Positions 22,970 through 31,612 of a stretch of 64,000 nt of DNA are shown here, in pieces (position 1 is the stretch's first letter; each line of letters opens with the position of its first letter). The notes below the pieces were generated by a model, which ran no database searches, was not told the DNA's origin, and was given only the letters and a program-made list of their open reading frames with translations. Location of the stretch: the NCBI GenBank assembly GCA_041650895.1, contig JBAZKF010000002.1, forward strand, positions 7,967-71,966, read 5' to 3'. Source of the stretch: Patescibacteria group bacterium. GTDB taxonomy: Bacteria; Patescibacteriota; Patescibacteriia; 2-01-FULL-39-33. The translations under genes and the position numbers were made by a program.

Positions 22970-23000
22970 AAAAAGACGCCGGAATTTCGGCGTCTTTTTG
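22970..23000. terminator. Bidirectional rho-independent terminator between iscS and the convergent pilus-locus gene
   Basis: GACGCCG-gaattt-CGGCGTC 7-bp perfect stem flanked by an A5 tract upstream and a T5 tract downstream. Confidence 0.7.
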
Positions 23001-23044: not shown

Positions 23045-23539
23045 TTAATTCTTAATGGTAGTGGTAGTTTTGGTGGTGGAAGAAGCCGCAGTAGAAGAAA
23101 CAGTACTGGTGTTAATCAGGTTATTAATAACAGTTAAAGACCAAGAATCATTTGATGGTCGTAGAGGCGGATCAATTTGCGAAAAAACAAAAGGGTTTTT
23201 GAAGGGCCAAACAGCCGGCGTAGAAGTTTTGCGGCATAACAGTTCTTTGATTTGGTTTAAGGAATTGCCATTGATTTGGACTTCTATAACTTTGCTTTTT
23301 AATCCGGCTAACATATCCATTTGGGTCGCTGTCTGGTAGACCTCTTGATACAAGAAAGACATGACAGCAAACAGAATAATAATAATAGCGACTATGGTCA
23401 GGGGGTACATTAATCTGGCCAGCCAGAACCAATCCAACTTGATTTTGTTGGTTTTGGCTTTATTTGAAACCGGCAGACCAGCTTCTCCTGTTTCAGTCTT
23501 TACTTGGGTTATATTTTTTATTTTTTCCATTAAGCCCAT
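23045..23539 (-). CDS. Hypothetical bitopic membrane protein, last gene of the pilMNO operon, Ser/Thr-rich C-terminus
   Basis: One TM helix (LTIVAIIIILFAVMSFL), extracytoplasmic domain, C-terminal NTSTVSSTAASSTTKTTTT tail; immediately downstream of pilO. Confidence 0.4.
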   Translation of the reverse strand: MGLMEKIKNITQVKTETGEAGLPVSNKAKTNKIKLDWFWLARLMYPLTIVAIIIILFAVMSFLYQEVYQTATQMDMLAGLKSKVIEVQINGNSLNQIKELLCRKTSTPAVWPFKNPFVFSQIDPPLRPSNDSWSLTVINNLINTSTVSSTAASSTTKTTTTIKN

Positions 23540-23540
23540 A

Positions 23541-24092
23541 TTATTTGGTGGTGGCGATTTTGTTTTCTTGCCGATAGATATTGCCGCTGACGGCGGCGGC
23601 TACTAAGCCGTCGTTTTGCGCCGTTAAGCTTAAGACGTCAATTATAAAATAAGTTTCTCGCCGTTCCAGTTCATTCAGAGCCGTCAAAACACTTTCAAAT
23701 TTTCCGGAAATGATAAGTTCGATTGGCAGACGGGTAACTTCCGGAGAAAGAGCTTTGCCGGTGAAGTCAGGTTTAATGTCTATGATCAAACTGTTTTTGG
23801 CAGCCAAATTATCTAGATAGTTAAGAAATTCCAATTCTTGTCCCGGTTTGATATAAACCTGGCGCAACCTGGGCATTATTTTTTCTACAGCATCGGTTTC
23901 TTCTTTTATTTTATTGGCGTTAAGGCCCATGGCCAGCTTTTTTTCCAGATCTTGGCGTTCCTTGAGTATTTCTTGGCGGATGGTGATGATCTTGTTGGCT
24001 GTGGGATAAATAATAACAATAATCAAAGTCGTCCCAGCCAAGAATAGGACAAACGCCCAAATTATTTTTTTGTTTATTTTGATTCGGGACAT
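23541..24092 (-). CDS. pilO: Type IV pilus assembly protein PilO-like
   Basis: 183 aa, N-terminal TM helix, coiled-coil and C-terminal domain; sits in a pilM-pilN-pilO arrangement with overlapping stops and starts. Confidence 0.55.
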   Translation of the reverse strand: MSRIKINKKIIWAFVLFLAGTTLIIVIIYPTANKIITIRQEILKERQDLEKKLAMGLNANKIKEETDAVEKIMPRLRQVYIKPGQELEFLNYLDNLAAKNSLIIDIKPDFTGKALSPEVTRLPIELIISGKFESVLTALNELERRETYFIIDVLSLTAQNDGLVAAAVSGNIYRQENKIATTK

Positions 24093-24643
24093 ACGTTAGT
24101 AGGTGTTAACGCCTGATAGTTGACATTGGCCTTGATACTGAAAGCGTTGTTTTCTTTGGGCACCAGGGCGGACAAAGGAATTTCGGCATCGCTAAGCCAA
24201 TCGGCTTTGTCTAAATAACTTTTGAATTTCATCAGATTATCCCGAGTTTTGGTACTGCCGGAGAATTCTATTCGGCTTTCTTGGCGGAAGAAGCGCAAAC
24301 TGCTGATGGCGACGTTGGCCGGTAGGGTATAAGAGATGGCTGAAATGATCGGGGTTACCGGTTGGTAGTTTTTTTGTATGCCTAAGGAGGCGTTGATCTC
24401 CTGATTCAAGGCATTAATTTTTTTGGCGACCAATTGGTTGGAATAGATATTGGCGGCATTCTGGGTGATCATTTCATTTAGTTGCTGTTCTAAGAAATAA
24501 CGTGAGACTAAAAGCAAAATACTGATAATAGCGGCGAATAAAAACAGCAAAGTCAACGACTCCTGGACGGCTTGGTAGAGACGGCTGTTTTTTAATTGGT
24601 CTTTTTGCTTGGGCGGGACCAAGTTAAGCCTGATTGTGATCAT
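24074..24643 (-). CDS. pilN: Type IV pilus assembly protein PilN-like
   Basis: N-terminal IRLNLVPPKQK (PilN LNLLP-like motif), single TM helix, periplasmic domain; overlaps pilM and pilO. Confidence 0.6.
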   Translation of the reverse strand: MITIRLNLVPPKQKDQLKNSRLYQAVQESLTLLFLFAAIISILLLVSRYFLEQQLNEMITQNAANIYSNQLVAKKINALNQEINASLGIQKNYQPVTPIISAISYTLPANVAISSLRFFRQESRIEFSGSTKTRDNLMKFKSYLDKADWLSDAEIPLSALVPKENNAFSIKANVNYQALTPTNVCPESK

Positions 24644-25700
24644 AAAAAGTTTTGGGAGACAAACCCCTTAGTGCTAGGCCGATGGCCGGAACAAAAGATT
24701 GGTATTTCTCGGCCGTGAAGTAATGAGGGTCGGGGTTGACGATGTTTTTGAATGGTTCGGCGATAACGACCGGAGTATTGAGGCGGTTTTGGATTTCCCG
24801 ATTCAAGCCGGTTAATCCGGATAATCCGCCACAGAGCTGAATCTGTTCAATCAGGCCAGGAGAAGAGAAATTATTTTGGTAGAAATCAACGGCGTGAAGT
24901 ATTTGGGTCGCTAATTCGTCAATCAGTGGTGTGAGCAGTTCCAGGACGGCACCATGGCACTTGTCTCGGCTTAGGCCGCAAATAATCTTGGCCTGCTCGG
25001 CTTTTTCCAGATCCAACTCTAATGATTCGGCGATATATTGATCAATCTGTTTGCCCGATAGAGCCAGGGTGACGTTGAATTTGACATCAGCTCCTTCGCA
25101 AAGGATTAAACTGCTACGATTAGCTCCCAAATCAGCGATAATTTGTGGCCGAATATCGCTAGCGTTTTCAATCAGTAGTCTAGCGATGGCAATGGCTTCG
25201 ATTTCGAACACGACTGGCAAGATACCCAGACTGTTAAGGGCGGAAGAATATGAATCAACCAAAGCTCGCGGGGCGGCTCCGACTAATATAGTGTAGACTC
25301 CTTCCTGGTTTTTGATGACTTGCCAATCATAATAAATTTCTTCCAGTGCCAGAGGCAGGCTTTGCGGTAAGAGCTCTTCAATTTTAGGTAAGAGTTCTTC
25401 CTCGTTGGTGGCGGCGATTTCCAGAGTTTTTAGGAAGGTGCCGGCTTGAGGTAGGGCTACGACGGCTTCATTGCTTAATCCGCCCAGCCCGCGCTTGGTG
25501 CCAACGAGTTGTTTTAGTGTTTGGACAAAATATTGGCTATTGACAACATTTCCGCTCACCACGGTTTGCGGCGGCAGTTTAACTTCGTTGAACAATTGGA
25601 TTTTGATTTTTTTGCCGAAACGCTTAAGCTGGATCAGTCGCAAGAAATGGTCAGAGACATCCAAGCCGAAAGCTAATTCGTTAGTGGAAAAAAAAGACAT
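24624..25700 (-). CDS. pilM: Type IV pilus assembly ATPase-fold protein PilM
   Basis: 358 aa actin-like fold (FGLDVSDHFLRLIQLK... ; GGLSGLTGL) typical of PilM, followed by pilN. Confidence 0.8.
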   Translation of the reverse strand: MSFFSTNELAFGLDVSDHFLRLIQLKRFGKKIKIQLFNEVKLPPQTVVSGNVVNSQYFVQTLKQLVGTKRGLGGLSNEAVVALPQAGTFLKTLEIAATNEEELLPKIEELLPQSLPLALEEIYYDWQVIKNQEGVYTILVGAAPRALVDSYSSALNSLGILPVVFEIEAIAIARLLIENASDIRPQIIADLGANRSSLILCEGADVKFNVTLALSGKQIDQYIAESLELDLEKAEQAKIICGLSRDKCHGAVLELLTPLIDELATQILHAVDFYQNNFSSPGLIEQIQLCGGLSGLTGLNREIQNRLNTPVVIAEPFKNIVNPDPHYFTAEKYQSFVPAIGLALRGLSPKTFYDHNQA

Positions 25701-25904
25701 GGTTAATTAATTACGAGCTTGTTTATCGGCAAGCAGGTTTCAAATTGCTAATTACTAATTAAAATAATATTGTATTAATTATAACATTTTTTTGATAATT
25801 ATAATAATTCATTGTTGATAATCAATATAATTTTTCAAGAATACTGCAATCAGCAGTATTAGCAGTTAGATTTATAATTCGTAATTTTTAATTCGTAATT
25901 GGTT

Positions 25905-27173
25905 TTAGTATTCTTCCTCCCAGTGTTCAACGGTTACGATCGGCGAGAATTGCGGGTCGCCCAAAGTATAATTGACGACGCTGTTGTCATAGACAATAGT
26001 CATGGCTTGCCAGATACTGGTCAGAGTGATTTTGCGCGAGACCAAGCCGCCGGTTACGGCAATACTGTATGGTAAACTTAGGATATTTATTTTATCATTG
26101 GCATAAATCAGTCCATTACCGGAAAAACTGTCTAAACAAAGTTCAAAGCTAATATTCCTTTTACTTAAAATTCCGGCCGGAGTAGTGGAGCCGACGCGGT
26201 TAATGGTAATGTGGCTGCGGCCGCAGTTAAGTCCCCAACAACATAACAGAGTGTTGGCGCCTAATTCAATATCGCCGTCGGCGATTAAGACGCCGTTAAT
26301 GATTAAATTATTGTTGCCTCGGATAGAAACATCGCCGGTAACATAAGTGATGCCGTTTAAAGTCAGGGTACCGCCTCGGTTGTTCCAGAGCAGGGTGTCA
26401 AATTGGCTGGCGGTATAGATGTTATTAGCTCGAGCCTTATAAGAATCGGGATCGCTGGGGTTATCAAAGGATACTGCCGGCATAGCCAGCGGGTCAGGTT
26501 CCGGCGGGTTGATGTTATGGGAATGGATTTCCGTGGCGTTAAGCATGGATTTACTGCCGATATTTATATTACCGACAGCCTGGACTTGCTTATCGGCATT
26601 AATAGTGCTCCAGAAATTAATGATAACATTCAGGTTGGAGAAAAAACCGCCGTTAACAATTGCCAGGTTGGATCCGGACATGTCAATATTACCGTCGGCG
26701 TATTCGCCATTGTTGCCGACCAAACTCTCGCCCAGAGCTTTGTAGATCAGGGTTTTAATGACCCGCCGGGAAGAACCGCCGCTTAGGGCCAAGGTACTGG
26801 TAACGTTTACTTCCCCGCGACCGCGGGAACTGTTTTTGATATTGATGGCGTAACTGCCGTTATCATATAGAGCCGCGGGCCGAGTATAGGTTATATTCCA
26901 ATCATCAGTGCCTTCAAACTGGCTTTTCCAAGTGGCGTCGTTTTTGATTCGCCAAACCGCTTCGGCCACGCCGCTTTCCGCCAAATAATAGTTTTGGACC
27001 GAGGCCGCTTGACTGTTAGCGATATGCAATTCGGTCAGAACAAAGGAAGCGACAAATATACCCAACGATAACAGCAGTAGCATGACAAAAATCGAGGTTA
27101 CCAAAACAAACCCACTGGAGCAATGGTGATTGATTCGCTGACTGGCAGATTTAAGATTAAATATTTTTTTCAT
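25905..27173 (-). CDS. PilX-like large minor pilin / pilus-associated protein with beta-strand-rich C-terminal region
   Basis: N-terminal SSGFVLVTSIFVMLLLLSLGIFVASFVL resembles the PilX_N pseudopilin anchor (no Glu5); 422 aa; the C-terminus is rich in NG/GN repeats suggestive of a beta-helix; translationally coupled to the upstream pilin-like gene. Confidence 0.45.
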   Translation of the reverse strand: MKKIFNLKSASQRINHHCSSGFVLVTSIFVMLLLLSLGIFVASFVLTELHIANSQAASVQNYYLAESGVAEAVWRIKNDATWKSQFEGTDDWNITYTRPAALYDNGSYAINIKNSSRGRGEVNVTSTLALSGGSSRRVIKTLIYKALGESLVGNNGEYADGNIDMSGSNLAIVNGGFFSNLNVIINFWSTINADKQVQAVGNINIGSKSMLNATEIHSHNINPPEPDPLAMPAVSFDNPSDPDSYKARANNIYTASQFDTLLWNNRGGTLTLNGITYVTGDVSIRGNNNLIINGVLIADGDIELGANTLLCCWGLNCGRSHITINRVGSTTPAGILSKRNISFELCLDSFSGNGLIYANDKINILSLPYSIAVTGGLVSRKITLTSIWQAMTIVYDNSVVNYTLGDPQFSPIVTVEHWEEEY

Positions 27174-27814
27174 AAGTTCCGGCCGAATACCGCCGTGTAT
27201 ATCACTTGGCTGGTGTTATCTTTAGATAAGTAAAGATTGATATTTATCAGCTTGTTTCCCCAGAATTCAACGTCATCAACGAACTCGCCGATGATTTTGT
27301 CTTCCGTGGTTGTCGCCAAGGGGGGATTATGAGGCTCGTCCACGTCAGTATCCGTATCCAAGACGTAGTAAGTGGTGGAAGCCGGGAAATAATAGACGAT
27401 AACTTGCCGTTTGAGCGTGTTGTCTTCCTGGTAATAGCGGATGTAATGCTTATAAGAAATATCATGACCGTCCAGGAACTTTATTTCGTTGGGCAGAGCT
27501 TCGGGATCAGAGGTGTCAGTAGGTAGAACATTAGATAAGCGTTGGGCTTGGCGGATTTCTCGCACCAGGCGATCCAGCATGACTCGGCCGTTTTGGGTCA
27601 GTTCAGCCGTAACGTCGGTTTGGCTGTAAGCGTTCTGGCTAATAACATAAGTGGAAGTAATCAATAAAAAAATTATTATGGCGATCGTTATTGATACCAC
27701 AATTTCTACAATTGTAAAACCGGAATTGTCAGTTGGAAGTTGGCGCATTATTTTTCGCTGATTAAAAAGATTAATGGGAAGGTTATTTCTTTGCCCAAAT
27801 AAGGGGACAGCCAA
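27170..27814 (-). CDS. Type IV pilin-like minor pilin (PilW-like)
   Basis: Prepilin motif NSG|FTIVEIVVSITIAIIIFLL (Gly-1, Phe+1, Glu+5); alternative start at MRQLP. Confidence 0.55.
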   Translation of the reverse strand: MAVPLFGQRNNLPINLFNQRKIMRQLPTDNSGFTIVEIVVSITIAIIIFLLITSTYVISQNAYSQTDVTAELTQNGRVMLDRLVREIRQAQRLSNVLPTDTSDPEALPNEIKFLDGHDISYKHYIRYYQEDNTLKRQVIVYYFPASTTYYVLDTDTDVDEPHNPPLATTTEDKIIGEFVDDVEFWGNKLININLYLSKDNTSQVIYTAVFGRNL

Positions 27815-28179
27815 TAGATCGTAATGGAAATTTTTTTTAATCCGACATCAATAGCCGAGTTGTTTAGATTGCCGTCAACATAATTTACCGTTGTCTGCCT
27901 CTCGTATTTGTAAAAAGGGTTGGCCGGATCGCTGGCTAAACGATGCCTGGCTTCAATTATGCCGGTATTGATCCCGTTGTAATCCAAAGAGTATATTGTT
28001 TCAGCTTGGGCTTGGGCCAAATTGGCTGCTACTGTGGTCTGTTCGGCGATGCGTGACATTTTTAGGGCTAAGGGGAAAATTTGGATAATGCCCAAAATTG
28101 CCATAGCCAGAACGGCGATAGCCAGGATAGCTTCTAAAATAGAAATACCTGATTTATTTAGAGAAAGAGATTTGGGCAT
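27748..28179 (-). CDS. Type IV pilin-like minor pilin (PilV-like)
   Basis: N-terminal KSG|ISILEAILAIAVLAMAILGI prepilin-like leader and hydrophobic helix with Glu+5. Confidence 0.5.
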   Translation of the reverse strand: MPKSLSLNKSGISILEAILAIAVLAMAILGIIQIFPLALKMSRIAEQTTVAANLAQAQAETIYSLDYNGINTGIIEARHRLASDPANPFYKYERQTTVNYVDGNLNNSAIDVGLKKISITIYWLSPYLGKEITFPLIFLISEK

Positions 28180-28645
28180 AACCTGAGGGTTTTATATCAA
28201 TCGTGGCACGACGGCCGTTAGAATTGGACAGGATGACATTGCCCGAGGAAACAGCCGCTCCCGTGGCATTAAAAATGGCGGTTGAAGAGGCTAAGGTGGT
28301 TGACTCCAGTATAATCGGGCTTTTGATGATGCGGGATTTTATTAGTAATCCGGTAGAATCGTTTTCTACGGTGTAGAGGTTTTGGTTGATGTCAAAAACC
28401 AACCGGTAGTTGGCTTGAGTGGTAACGGCTTGCTGTTGGGCGTAACGCAAATCAGAAGTCAAATCGCGCGCCGCGCCTTGCAACTGTAGGCTGACAGTGA
28501 AACTTTGATAGTAAGGCAAACCGACCCCGGTAATAATGCCAAGCAGAGCGATTACCACTACCAATTCCAATAAAGAAAAGCCGGCCAGATTGGACCGGAC
28601 GGCTAAAGAACCGGTAGGGCAGGATTTTTTTTCTAGTTTACTCAT
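28154..28645 (-). CDS. Type IV pilin / pseudopilin (FimT/GspH-like)
   Basis: Classical prepilin signature LAG|FSLLELVVVIALLGII; internal Met start preferred. Confidence 0.65.
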   Translation of the reverse strand: MSKLEKKSCPTGSLAVRSNLAGFSLLELVVVIALLGIITGVGLPYYQSFTVSLQLQGAARDLTSDLRYAQQQAVTTQANYRLVFDINQNLYTVENDSTGLLIKSRIIKSPIILESTTLASSTAIFNATGAAVSSGNVILSNSNGRRATIDIKPSGYAQISFSK

Positions 28646-28707
28646 ATTGCATAATGTGCCCGTCATCTTCGCGTTCGGGCGATGATGCGGGAGTATAGGG
28701 GGCTGGG

Positions 28708-29775
28708 TTAGAATTGCGAGGTCATGGAATAGATTGGCAGAATAATGGCGATAGCCAAACCGCCGACACCGAAACCCATTAAGATCATTAGTAACGGCTC
28801 GATTATGGTCGGTAGCGATTCCATGGTTTGTTCCACTTCCTCCTGATAAAATTCCGCCAGGTTTTTTAATACCGCATCCAGCGAACCGGTTTCTTCTCCG
28901 ACCGCCACCATTTGGATGATAATAACCGGAAAAACTTTGTATTGTTTAAAAACGTCAGCCAGTTTGATGCCCTTTTTTATTTTCTCTGACGCCTCCATCA
29001 GCGCTTGCCGGTAAACCGCGTTGGACATTATCCTGGCGGTAATTTTTAAGCTGTCAGGAATGGGGATATCGGTTTGGATCAGGGAGCTTAAAGCCGAGGA
29101 CATTCTGGCGATGTTGATTTTGACGGAAATCGGGCCGACGATGGGCGTTCTAAGTATCAGTTGATGCCACATCAGGCGTAATGGCCCGGAACGGGTGAGG
29201 CGCCAGAAGAGAATAAAAATCAGAATAATTAGCGGTCCCAGGATTAAGCCATTGGTTGTAACAAAGTTGCTGATGGTTATGAGTATTTTGGTGGGCAAGG
29301 GCAAGCCGGCTTCAAGATCTTTAAACATCAAGGTAATGTTGGGCAGGACATAAATCATGACAAAAATGCTTAGGGCGATCATGGCGCAGACGATGATGAT
29401 CGGGTAGATCATGGCGTTTTTAATTTTGCTTTTGATGGTGTGATCTTTTTTGAGCTGGATGTATAGATTATTCAGTACGCCTTCCAGATTACCAGAGGCT
29501 TCGCCGGCGGCAATCATATTGACGAACATTTCTCCGAAATCGCGCTGATAGGGCAACAAAGCGTCGGCAAAGCTTTTGCCCCCGCGGATTTGCTGTTGTA
29601 TTTCACCCAGAACCGTTTTCAATTTGGCGCTCTTGCCTTGCTCTGAGAGAATATTTAAGGCGTCAGCCAACGGCAGGCCGGCTTTGATCATAACAAACAG
29701 GTTTTGCAACATGAAGATTTTCGCCGTTTCCGGCACGCGTTGCAGATTGATGAACATTTGATTTAAGTTCGCCAT
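28708..29775 (-). CDS. pilC: Type IV pilus assembly platform protein PilC (GspF family)
   Basis: 355 aa with two GspF-type repeats and three TM helices; directly downstream of pilB. Confidence 0.85.
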   Translation of the reverse strand: MANLNQMFINLQRVPETAKIFMLQNLFVMIKAGLPLADALNILSEQGKSAKLKTVLGEIQQQIRGGKSFADALLPYQRDFGEMFVNMIAAGEASGNLEGVLNNLYIQLKKDHTIKSKIKNAMIYPIIIVCAMIALSIFVMIYVLPNITLMFKDLEAGLPLPTKILITISNFVTTNGLILGPLIILIFILFWRLTRSGPLRLMWHQLILRTPIVGPISVKINIARMSSALSSLIQTDIPIPDSLKITARIMSNAVYRQALMEASEKIKKGIKLADVFKQYKVFPVIIIQMVAVGEETGSLDAVLKNLAEFYQEEVEQTMESLPTIIEPLLMILMGFGVGGLAIAIILPIYSMTSQF

Positions 29776-29784
29776 AGGTGTTTG

Positions 29785-31503
29785 TTATTCTTTGGTTACC
29801 CTCAGCACTTCCTCAATGGAAGTGACGCCTGTTTTAGCCTTGATAAAGCCGTCCAGCATGATTGTTGCCATGCCGTTTTCAATTGCGGCTTTCTGTAATT
29901 CATCACGTGTCGCTTTGCTTAGGATCATGGCCGATATCTTGTCGCTTATCTCCAATGTTTCATAAATGCCGATGCGTCCTTTGTAACCGGAATTATCGCA
30001 TTGTTGGCAGCCGCGGCCACGGAAAAACAAAGTATCTTTGAGTTTTTGTTTCTTGCCTAGCATGCCCAAATTCGACAGGCTTTTTTCCACCTCGCTTAGA
30101 TTGAATTCCTTTTCCAATTCCATAACGCCTTTTTTGTCCAAGTTGTAGCTTTCAATGCAGTTTTTACAGATTTTTCGGACCAGGCGTTGGGCGATAATCA
30201 AGTTCAGGGTTGAAGAAATTAAAAATGTCGGCACATTCATATCAGTCAAGCGGGGGATGGAAGTAGCCGCGTCATTGGTGTGCAGGGTGGATAAGACCAA
30301 ATGGCCGGTCATGGCGGCATTTATGGCGATGTCGGCGGTTTCATTATCACGGATTTCTCCGACCAGGATGATATTCGGATCTTGGCGCAAGAAAGAACGC
30401 AAAGCCGCAGCAAAAGTGAAGCCGATTTTGGGCTGGACCTGGCATTGGTTGATGCCGGGCATTTTGTATTCAATCGGGTCTTCAACCGTGGAAATATTTA
30501 CTTCCGGCTTATTCAAAACTTGCAACATGGTGTACAGGGTGGTGGTTTTGCCGGAACCGGTCGGACCGGTAACCAAAATCATGCCATGCGGTTTGGCGAT
30601 GTTGCGTTTAACTACATCTAATGATTGAGGTTGAAAGCCTAGCTGTTCCAAAGTCATTTGCTGAGCCGTATCGGGTAGGAGGCGCAAGACGGCTTTTTCG
30701 CCGTCAAAAGTCGGAACAATGGAGACACGGAAAGAGACTTGGTAGTCTTGGCTTTTTATTTTGAAACGGCCGTCTTGGGGTAGGCGGTGTTCGTCTAATT
30801 TTAAGTTAGACAGGATTTTGATTCTGGCGATAATGCCGGCGTGGGCGGTCTTGGGCAGGGTCATGACTTTGCGTAACATACCGTCAATGCGGTAGCGTAC
30901 GGCTACGTCCTGGTCGGACGGTTCAATGTGGATGTCCGAGGCCTTTTCCAGAATGGCGTATTCCAGTAGCGTGTCTACGATGCGTACCACCGGCAGATCT
31001 TGGGCCAAGGATTTGAGATTCTCCGGCTTTTCTTCGCTTCCTTCTTCTTCAATTGTTTTAATATCGGCCGATAGCCCTTTGTGGTATTGCTTGAGAGCAT
31101 CTTTAATGTTGTCCGGGGAAGTCAGATGAAGCAGAACCTCTAAACCGGTCTTTTTAGCCAAAAAGTCAAACAGTTCAATGTTAGAAATATCTAACGTAGC
31201 GACTTTGAGTTCTTTGGTGGTCTTGTCAAAAGCTATTGTTTTGTGGGCGCTGGCCGTCACCTCGGGAATAGTAAAGAGGATATCCTTGCGGATGGTTTGG
31301 TTTTTGAGGTCAATATAGGGCAGATCGTAATATTTGGCCGCCGATTCGTATAACAAGTTGGGGGCGATGATTTTTTTATCAACCAAAAAATCCTCCAGCT
31401 TTTTATTGGCTTGTCTGGCTTTGTCGGAGTATTCTTTGATTTGCTTGGTTTCTAAAATTTTGCTTTGAAGCAAAATTTCTTCCAAATCTTTTTGGTTAAG
31501 CAT
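29785..31503 (-). CDS. pilB: Type IV pilus assembly ATPase PilB (GspE family)
   Basis: Walker A GPTGSGKTTTLY, Asp/His boxes, C-terminal tetracysteine CxxC...CxxC (CKNC...CQQC), N-terminal GspII_E-like domain; 572 aa. Confidence 0.9.
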   Translation of the reverse strand: MLNQKDLEEILLQSKILETKQIKEYSDKARQANKKLEDFLVDKKIIAPNLLYESAAKYYDLPYIDLKNQTIRKDILFTIPEVTASAHKTIAFDKTTKELKVATLDISNIELFDFLAKKTGLEVLLHLTSPDNIKDALKQYHKGLSADIKTIEEEGSEEKPENLKSLAQDLPVVRIVDTLLEYAILEKASDIHIEPSDQDVAVRYRIDGMLRKVMTLPKTAHAGIIARIKILSNLKLDEHRLPQDGRFKIKSQDYQVSFRVSIVPTFDGEKAVLRLLPDTAQQMTLEQLGFQPQSLDVVKRNIAKPHGMILVTGPTGSGKTTTLYTMLQVLNKPEVNISTVEDPIEYKMPGINQCQVQPKIGFTFAAALRSFLRQDPNIILVGEIRDNETADIAINAAMTGHLVLSTLHTNDAATSIPRLTDMNVPTFLISSTLNLIIAQRLVRKICKNCIESYNLDKKGVMELEKEFNLSEVEKSLSNLGMLGKKQKLKDTLFFRGRGCQQCDNSGYKGRIGIYETLEISDKISAMILSKATRDELQKAAIENGMATIMLDGFIKAKTGVTSIEEVLRVTKE

Positions 31504-31537
31504 AGTTTGTCACCTTCCAGGTGGATTAGCTAATGTT

Positions 31538-31546
31538 ATTATAACA
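31538..31546 (-). promoter_or_regulatory. Extended -10 element TGtTATAAT upstream of pilB
   Basis: Minus-strand reading of this stretch gives TGTTATAAT ~35 nt upstream of the pilB ATG, after an upstream terminator. Confidence 0.35.
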
Positions 31547-31560
31547 TAAAATCATAAGAA

Positions 31561-31601
31561 GAACAAAATAAAACTCCGCGTCAGCAAATCGCTGCGCGGA
31601 G
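31561..31601 (-). terminator. Rho-independent terminator upstream of pilB (ends the upstream minus-strand transcript)
   Basis: CTCCGCG-(14 nt loop with inner CAGC/GCTG)-CGCGGAG hairpin followed, on the minus strand, by ttttattttgttc. Confidence 0.55.
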
Positions 31602-31612
31602 CAAGTAAGGTT

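Follow-up and report, generated by a model that had tools for sequence, protein, structure and literature searches.

What does a pilus locus build that encodes an assembly ATPase, a platform, a few minor pilins and no secretin, and what is the large PilX-like protein at the end of its pilin genes? The locus lies in a 64,000-nucleotide stretch of DNA (the window) from a metagenome-assembled genome of an ultra-small CPR/Patescibacteria bacterium, with Ca. Buchananbacteria as the closest lineage. All ten minus-strand ORFs listed by an initial annotation made from the letters alone were found where it had placed them (Table 1): PilB, PilC, three prepilins, a 422-aa pilin lacking Glu5 (K), PilM, PilN, PilO and a small membrane protein with a Ser/Thr-rich tail. 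As set out below, this is a genuine but ordinary CPR type IV pilus (T4P) gene cluster.

Table 1. Genes and transcription signals of the pilus locus (window coordinates).
Feature	Position	Strand	Description
Terminator-like hairpin, intrinsic	31574..31602	-	End of upstream 62-aa ORF
Extended -10 element TGTTATAAT	31538..31546	-	35 nt upstream of pilB ATG
pilB	29785..31503	-	Assembly (extension) ATPase, 572 aa, MshEN-type domain at N-terminus
pilC	28708..29775	-	Inner-membrane platform protein, 355 aa
H-type minor pilin	28154..28666	-	GspH/FimU/ComGD class, 170 aa, G|FSLLE
I-type minor pilin	27748..28179	-	GspI/PilV/ComGE class, 143 aa, G|ISILE
J-type minor pilin	27170..27748	-	GspJ/PilW/ComGF class, 192 aa from ATG 27748, G|FTIVE
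K-type predicted tip pilin	25905..27173	-	422 aa, SSG|FVLVT, class-III-like signal G21|F22, no Glu5
Second extended -10 element TGTTATAAT	25778..25786	-	78 nt upstream of pilM ATG, candidate internal promoter
pilM	24624..25700	-	Actin-like cytoplasmic alignment protein, 358 aa
pilN	24074..24643	-	Bitopic alignment protein, 189 aa
pilO	23541..24092	-	Bitopic alignment protein, 183 aa
Small membrane protein	23045..23539	-	Bitopic, 164 aa, Ser/Thr-rich tail
Terminator, intrinsic	22970..22999	-	Closes locus; 12-bp stem, 6 GC pairs, U-tract

Motor genes, locus layout and missing components

PilB matches T2SSE (E 2.5e-131) and an MshEN domain in Pfam, and its translation shows a Walker A motif (GPTGSGKTT) and a CxxC...CxxC tetracysteine. 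Among NCBIfam models, type_IV_pilB scores best (584 bits), followed by GspE (534), ComGA (262) and PilT (188), all under their equivalog cutoffs. PilC has two T2SSF repeats (E 1.7e-55), with NCBIfam matches to GspF (1e-87) and PilC (2e-78). For PilM (PilM_2, E 6e-41), the TIGR01175 score of 161.9 bits exceeds the cutoff of 133, and PilN, whose gene overlaps pilM by 20 nt, reaches 24.1 bits with PF05137 (cutoff 22.8). The single PilO sequence in the window gives a weak match (T2SSM_b, 0.03), while a profile built from 51 orthologues finds PilO of M. xanthus (3jc8, E 2e-11) and P. aeruginosa (2rjz, 1.7e-7). The locus differs from the ComG competence pilus: matches to ComGA and ComGB models fall far short of those to PilB and PilC, and ComG operons are not known to carry PilM, PilN or PilO. 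The 164-aa protein has a conserved core (FLYxNxYQT...LKxKV...K...NPF), followed in the present copy by a disordered tail; in at least 38 of the 80 related loci, a member of its family directly follows pilO. It has no match in Pfam, NCBIfam, PDB or PADLOC, and its AF2 model, a TM helix continuing into a long helix, is poor (pLDDT 53).

The order B-C-H-I-J-K-M-N-O(-small protein) was found again in 80 related Patescibacteria genomes, with K at 34–89% identity and housekeeping genes adjoining the locus. This recurrence beside housekeeping genes points to vertical descent and to purifying selection. Median identities of I, J and K (42%) are close to that of PilC (45%) and higher than those of PilM, PilN and PilO (28–34%). 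Ig-domain surface proteins are recurrent neighbours as well.

The initial annotation had placed an extended -10 promoter before pilB, and the element, TGTTATAAT, is indeed there. An identical copy precedes pilM in a 204-bp AT-rich spacer, near a TTGATT-16-TATAAT match; the 9-mer occurs six times in the window (approximately one copy expected), always sense-oriented and just upstream of an ORF. Each end of the locus is marked by a strong hairpin terminator. The upstream one, a bulged 11-pair stem followed by UUUUAUUUU (-21.5 kcal/mol, z -4.67), is predicted to shield the pilB promoter from upstream transcription; the closing one has -18 kcal/mol and z -6.25. By hairpin scan and sequence reading, the spacer between the 422-aa gene and pilM holds no convincing terminator, so that the "two operons" of the annotation may be a single unit with an internal promoter. 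The split is plausible, though unproven.

Neither Peptidase_A24 nor Secretin, nor a second T2SSE protein, appears among the Pfam matches of the window and flank genes, which cover record positions 1 to approximately 90,800 of the 101,131-bp contig (approximately 90%). Even with a relaxed motif, no further class-III signal peptide was found in the window or that part of the contig. The claim that pilD, pilT, a secretin and a major pilin are lacking from the window is thus borne out, and none of pilQ, pilT and pilD was found just outside it (approximately 8 kb on the right and 19 kb on the left). Within 10 kb there is no pilT, pilD or major pilin, either here or in the 80 related loci, and the pilus locus contains no PilY1-like gene. 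The locus is no self-sufficient "compact" system: genes for the major pilin and prepilin peptidase must lie in other parts of the genome. For CPR bacteria, T4P that have PilB/C/M/N/O but no secretin, with PilQ absent, are on record (PMC6744442), and the pilus genes of Nanosynbacter TM7x are spread over four loci (PMC11623550). Given these precedents and the same arrangement in 80 related genomes, the missing genes are expected rather than peculiar, and the monoderm-type pilus proposed for this locus is supported.

The minor pilins and the fold of K

Instead of the four pilin-like genes plus a pilX-like gene counted previously, there are three canonical prepilins and the 422-aa protein, four in total. 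The J gene most likely starts at the ATG of the public gene call rather than at TTG 27814, as had been proposed. The H pilin has an N_methyl match, scores 37.7 bits with Pfam GspH (cutoff 21) and also matches ComGD (1.5e-10), GspH (2e-9) and Verru_Chthon cassette protein D (1.7e-7). The I pilin of the window matches PilV (4e-6), as do 43 of 45 orthologues (ComGE, 40; GspI, 31; E as low as 3e-10). The J pilin matches Verru_Chthon cassette protein C (1.5e-6) and ComGF (5e-4), with 44 and 40 of 48 orthologues agreeing (GspJ, 14; HpsC, 11). At family level, I goes with GspI/PilV/ComGE, J with GspJ/ComGF/HpsC and K with GspK, in each case under the curated equivalog cutoffs and largely from N-terminal segments. 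Judged by these matches, the four pilins would form an H-I-J-K priming/tip complex.

The AF2 model of K is confident (pLDDT 89.9) and consists of a long alpha1 helix (residues 20–78), a GspK-like pilin sheet (93–147) and a triangular, ice-binding-protein-like beta-solenoid (approximately 155–395); the C-terminus carries an invariant VEHWEEEY. The beta-helix guessed from the NG-rich C-terminus therefore appears as a solenoid, in the model as well as in fold searches, and the pilin-like N-terminal helix, which the initial annotation had made its own test of the pilin assignment, is predicted. Among solved structures, ComZ of Thermus thermophilus is the best match by two methods, followed by ice-binding proteins and GspK. 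The global TM-score to ComZ is low (0.29) and the rmsd high, which may reflect a differing domain orientation. Since the K family has no sequence-level link to solved structures, the relationship is architectural only. The pilin module is basic (median pI 8.2; conserved K83, R98, R137, K140 and K145); the ectodomain overall is acidic (median pI 4.75, net charge approximately -11), the solenoid especially so. Four cysteines are conserved, which suggests that the module is extracellular and stabilised, and neither Pfam, NCBIfam nor further searches found a carbohydrate-binding or catalytic motif.

ComZ (PDB 6QVI; PMC6561018) likewise combines a GspK-like pilin module without Glu5 with a triangular ice-binding-protein-like solenoid, is encoded beside three pseudopilin-like minor pilins (PilA1–PilA3) and has been argued to fit only at the tip. 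K differs in its smaller size (422 aa versus 498–518 residues in the ComZ crystal chains), its retained G|F cleavage-site motif, its acidic ectodomain and its monoderm-like host, which leaves no secretin channel to pass; its likeness to ComZ is one of predicted fold. Cyanobacterial PilX-Com and PilX-EPS/HpsA (bioRxiv 10.64898/2026.02.12.705559) share the architecture with its inserted solenoid, the single-locus core set (FimT/H, PilV/I, PilW/J, PilX/K) and the absence of PilY1, and some I and J orthologues here match HpsB and HpsC models. However, cyanobacteria are diderm with PilQ and often have two specialised sets, versus the one seen here. The CPR pili, including T4P-1 and T4P-2 of TM7x, are secretin-free like this one and have PilB/C/M/N/O and several pilins (PMC6744442, Meheust et al. 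2019; PMC11623550). TM7x also has large minor pilins that lack canonical Glu5 or a PilD signal and are proposed to sit at the tip; these carry a jelly-roll (PilX1) and a beta-propeller domain (PilX2) rather than an ice-binding-protein-like solenoid, its locus 1 includes pilT, pilD and a major pilin, and pilins in that study had only 10–25% coverage across phyla (PMC11623550), whereas conservation is high among the tip pilins of the present locus. Monoderm type IV pili, among them the one of Streptococcus sanguinis, and the ComG competence pilus are secretin-free too and present effector modules on tip complexes of modular minor pilins. In S. sanguinis these pilins are PilA, PilB and PilC, whose modules are of vWA and lectin type, not an H-I-J-K set (PMC9934059).

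The proposed machine and the role of the solenoid

We consider it likely that this locus of a Buchananbacteria-like CPR host supplies two parts of a secretin-less, type IVa-like pilus, its membrane motor and its priming/tip complex. PilB hexamers would power the PilC platform, which PilM-PilN-PilO, and possibly the small bitopic protein, would keep in position. In type IV filaments, HIJK complexes cap and prime, with K lacking Glu5 (PMC9934059); here I, J and K would nucleate in the membrane. Without Glu5 and with its bulky solenoid, K could only sit on top, so that its GspK-type module and solenoid, a build like that of ComZ and cyanobacterial PilX, would form the exposed pilus tip. H would join this complex to the major pilin, which would then polymerise beneath. 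The major pilin, prepilin peptidase and any retraction ATPase would be encoded elsewhere in the genome; no major pilin, PilD or PilT was located, and the complete machine is a prediction for this genome. A secretin would be unnecessary because CPR cells have no outer membrane (PMC6744442).

The gene order also mirrors a gsp operon (E-F-H-I-J-K-L(M/N)-M(O); PDB 3CI0), with PilM plus PilN in the L-like place and PilO in the M-like one. The minor pilins are pseudopilin-type, GspK too lacks Glu5, and GspE and GspF models score close to those of PilB and PilC. A type II secretion-like pseudopilus driving protein secretion is nonetheless highly improbable: GspC, GspD, GspG and GspO are absent from the locus, PilB and PilM best match T4P models (PilM above a curated cutoff), secretion in CPR would have no outer membrane to pass (PMC6744442), and pili have been observed on CPR cells (PMC11623550). 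GspK further differs from K in its extra domain, which is alpha-helical and enters the sheet at another point (PMC6561018).

For a type IV pilus, the "likely tip or adhesin" of the initial annotation stands as regards the tip, where K is inferred to sit; adhesin is one of three roles that the modelled solenoid may have. We tentatively entertain a host-attachment or twitching pilus, with K as adhesin for a host-surface polysaccharide or protein. Its analogues would be cellulose-binding tapirins, cyanobacterial PilX-EPS and TM7x PilX2; the large Glu5-less PilX pilins of TM7x are candidate tip adhesins, and deletion of pilX2 cuts host binding by half (PMC11623550). The cysteines and the Ig-domain neighbours fit this role, but K lacks a detected carbohydrate-binding or catalytic motif, and a host-specific adhesin should diversify, while K is conserved like PilC across candidate phyla. 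Such conservation over lineages with presumably differing hosts would suit a universal ligand such as DNA, and K might be the extracellular DNA receptor of a dedicated competence pilus, a DNA-capturing filament specified by the H-I-J-K set, that feeds ComEC for nucleotide scavenging or transformation; such a receptor role has been proposed for ComZ with PilA2. This is possible, if somewhat doubtful. ComZ, the best structural match, binds dsDNA and adjoins three pilins required for competence and not for piliation (PMC6561018), the K pilin module is basic, ComEC occurs in 86% of CPR genomes and Saccharibacteria are naturally competent (PMC6744442, PMC10633639). However, the ectodomain is acidic, comEC, comEA and dprA are not near the locus in any of the 80 genomes, ice-binding proteins and tapirins use the fold for purposes other than DNA binding, cyanobacterial PilX of both competence and EPS/motility type carry it, and TM7x T4P-2 mutants have wild-type competence (PMC11623550). 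Rather unlikely, finally, is a ligand-free "tip plug" in place of PilY1/PilC, needed only for priming and capping. Such a plug is one proposal for this domain in the PilX of cyanobacteria, where PilY1 is lacking (bioRxiv 10.64898/2026.02.12.705559), and the strong conservation of K and the absence of PilY1 from the locus agree with it; yet ComZ binds DNA (PMC6561018) and loss of PilX2, a tip pilin with no solenoid, lowers host binding (PMC11623550). A plug is also hard to tell from an adhesin or a DNA receptor, and one solenoid could fill more than one of these roles. What is worth keeping from this locus is its large "PilX-like" protein, a predicted tip pilin of ComZ-like build with a beta-solenoid cap, for which the candidate ligands are DNA, a host glycan or none.

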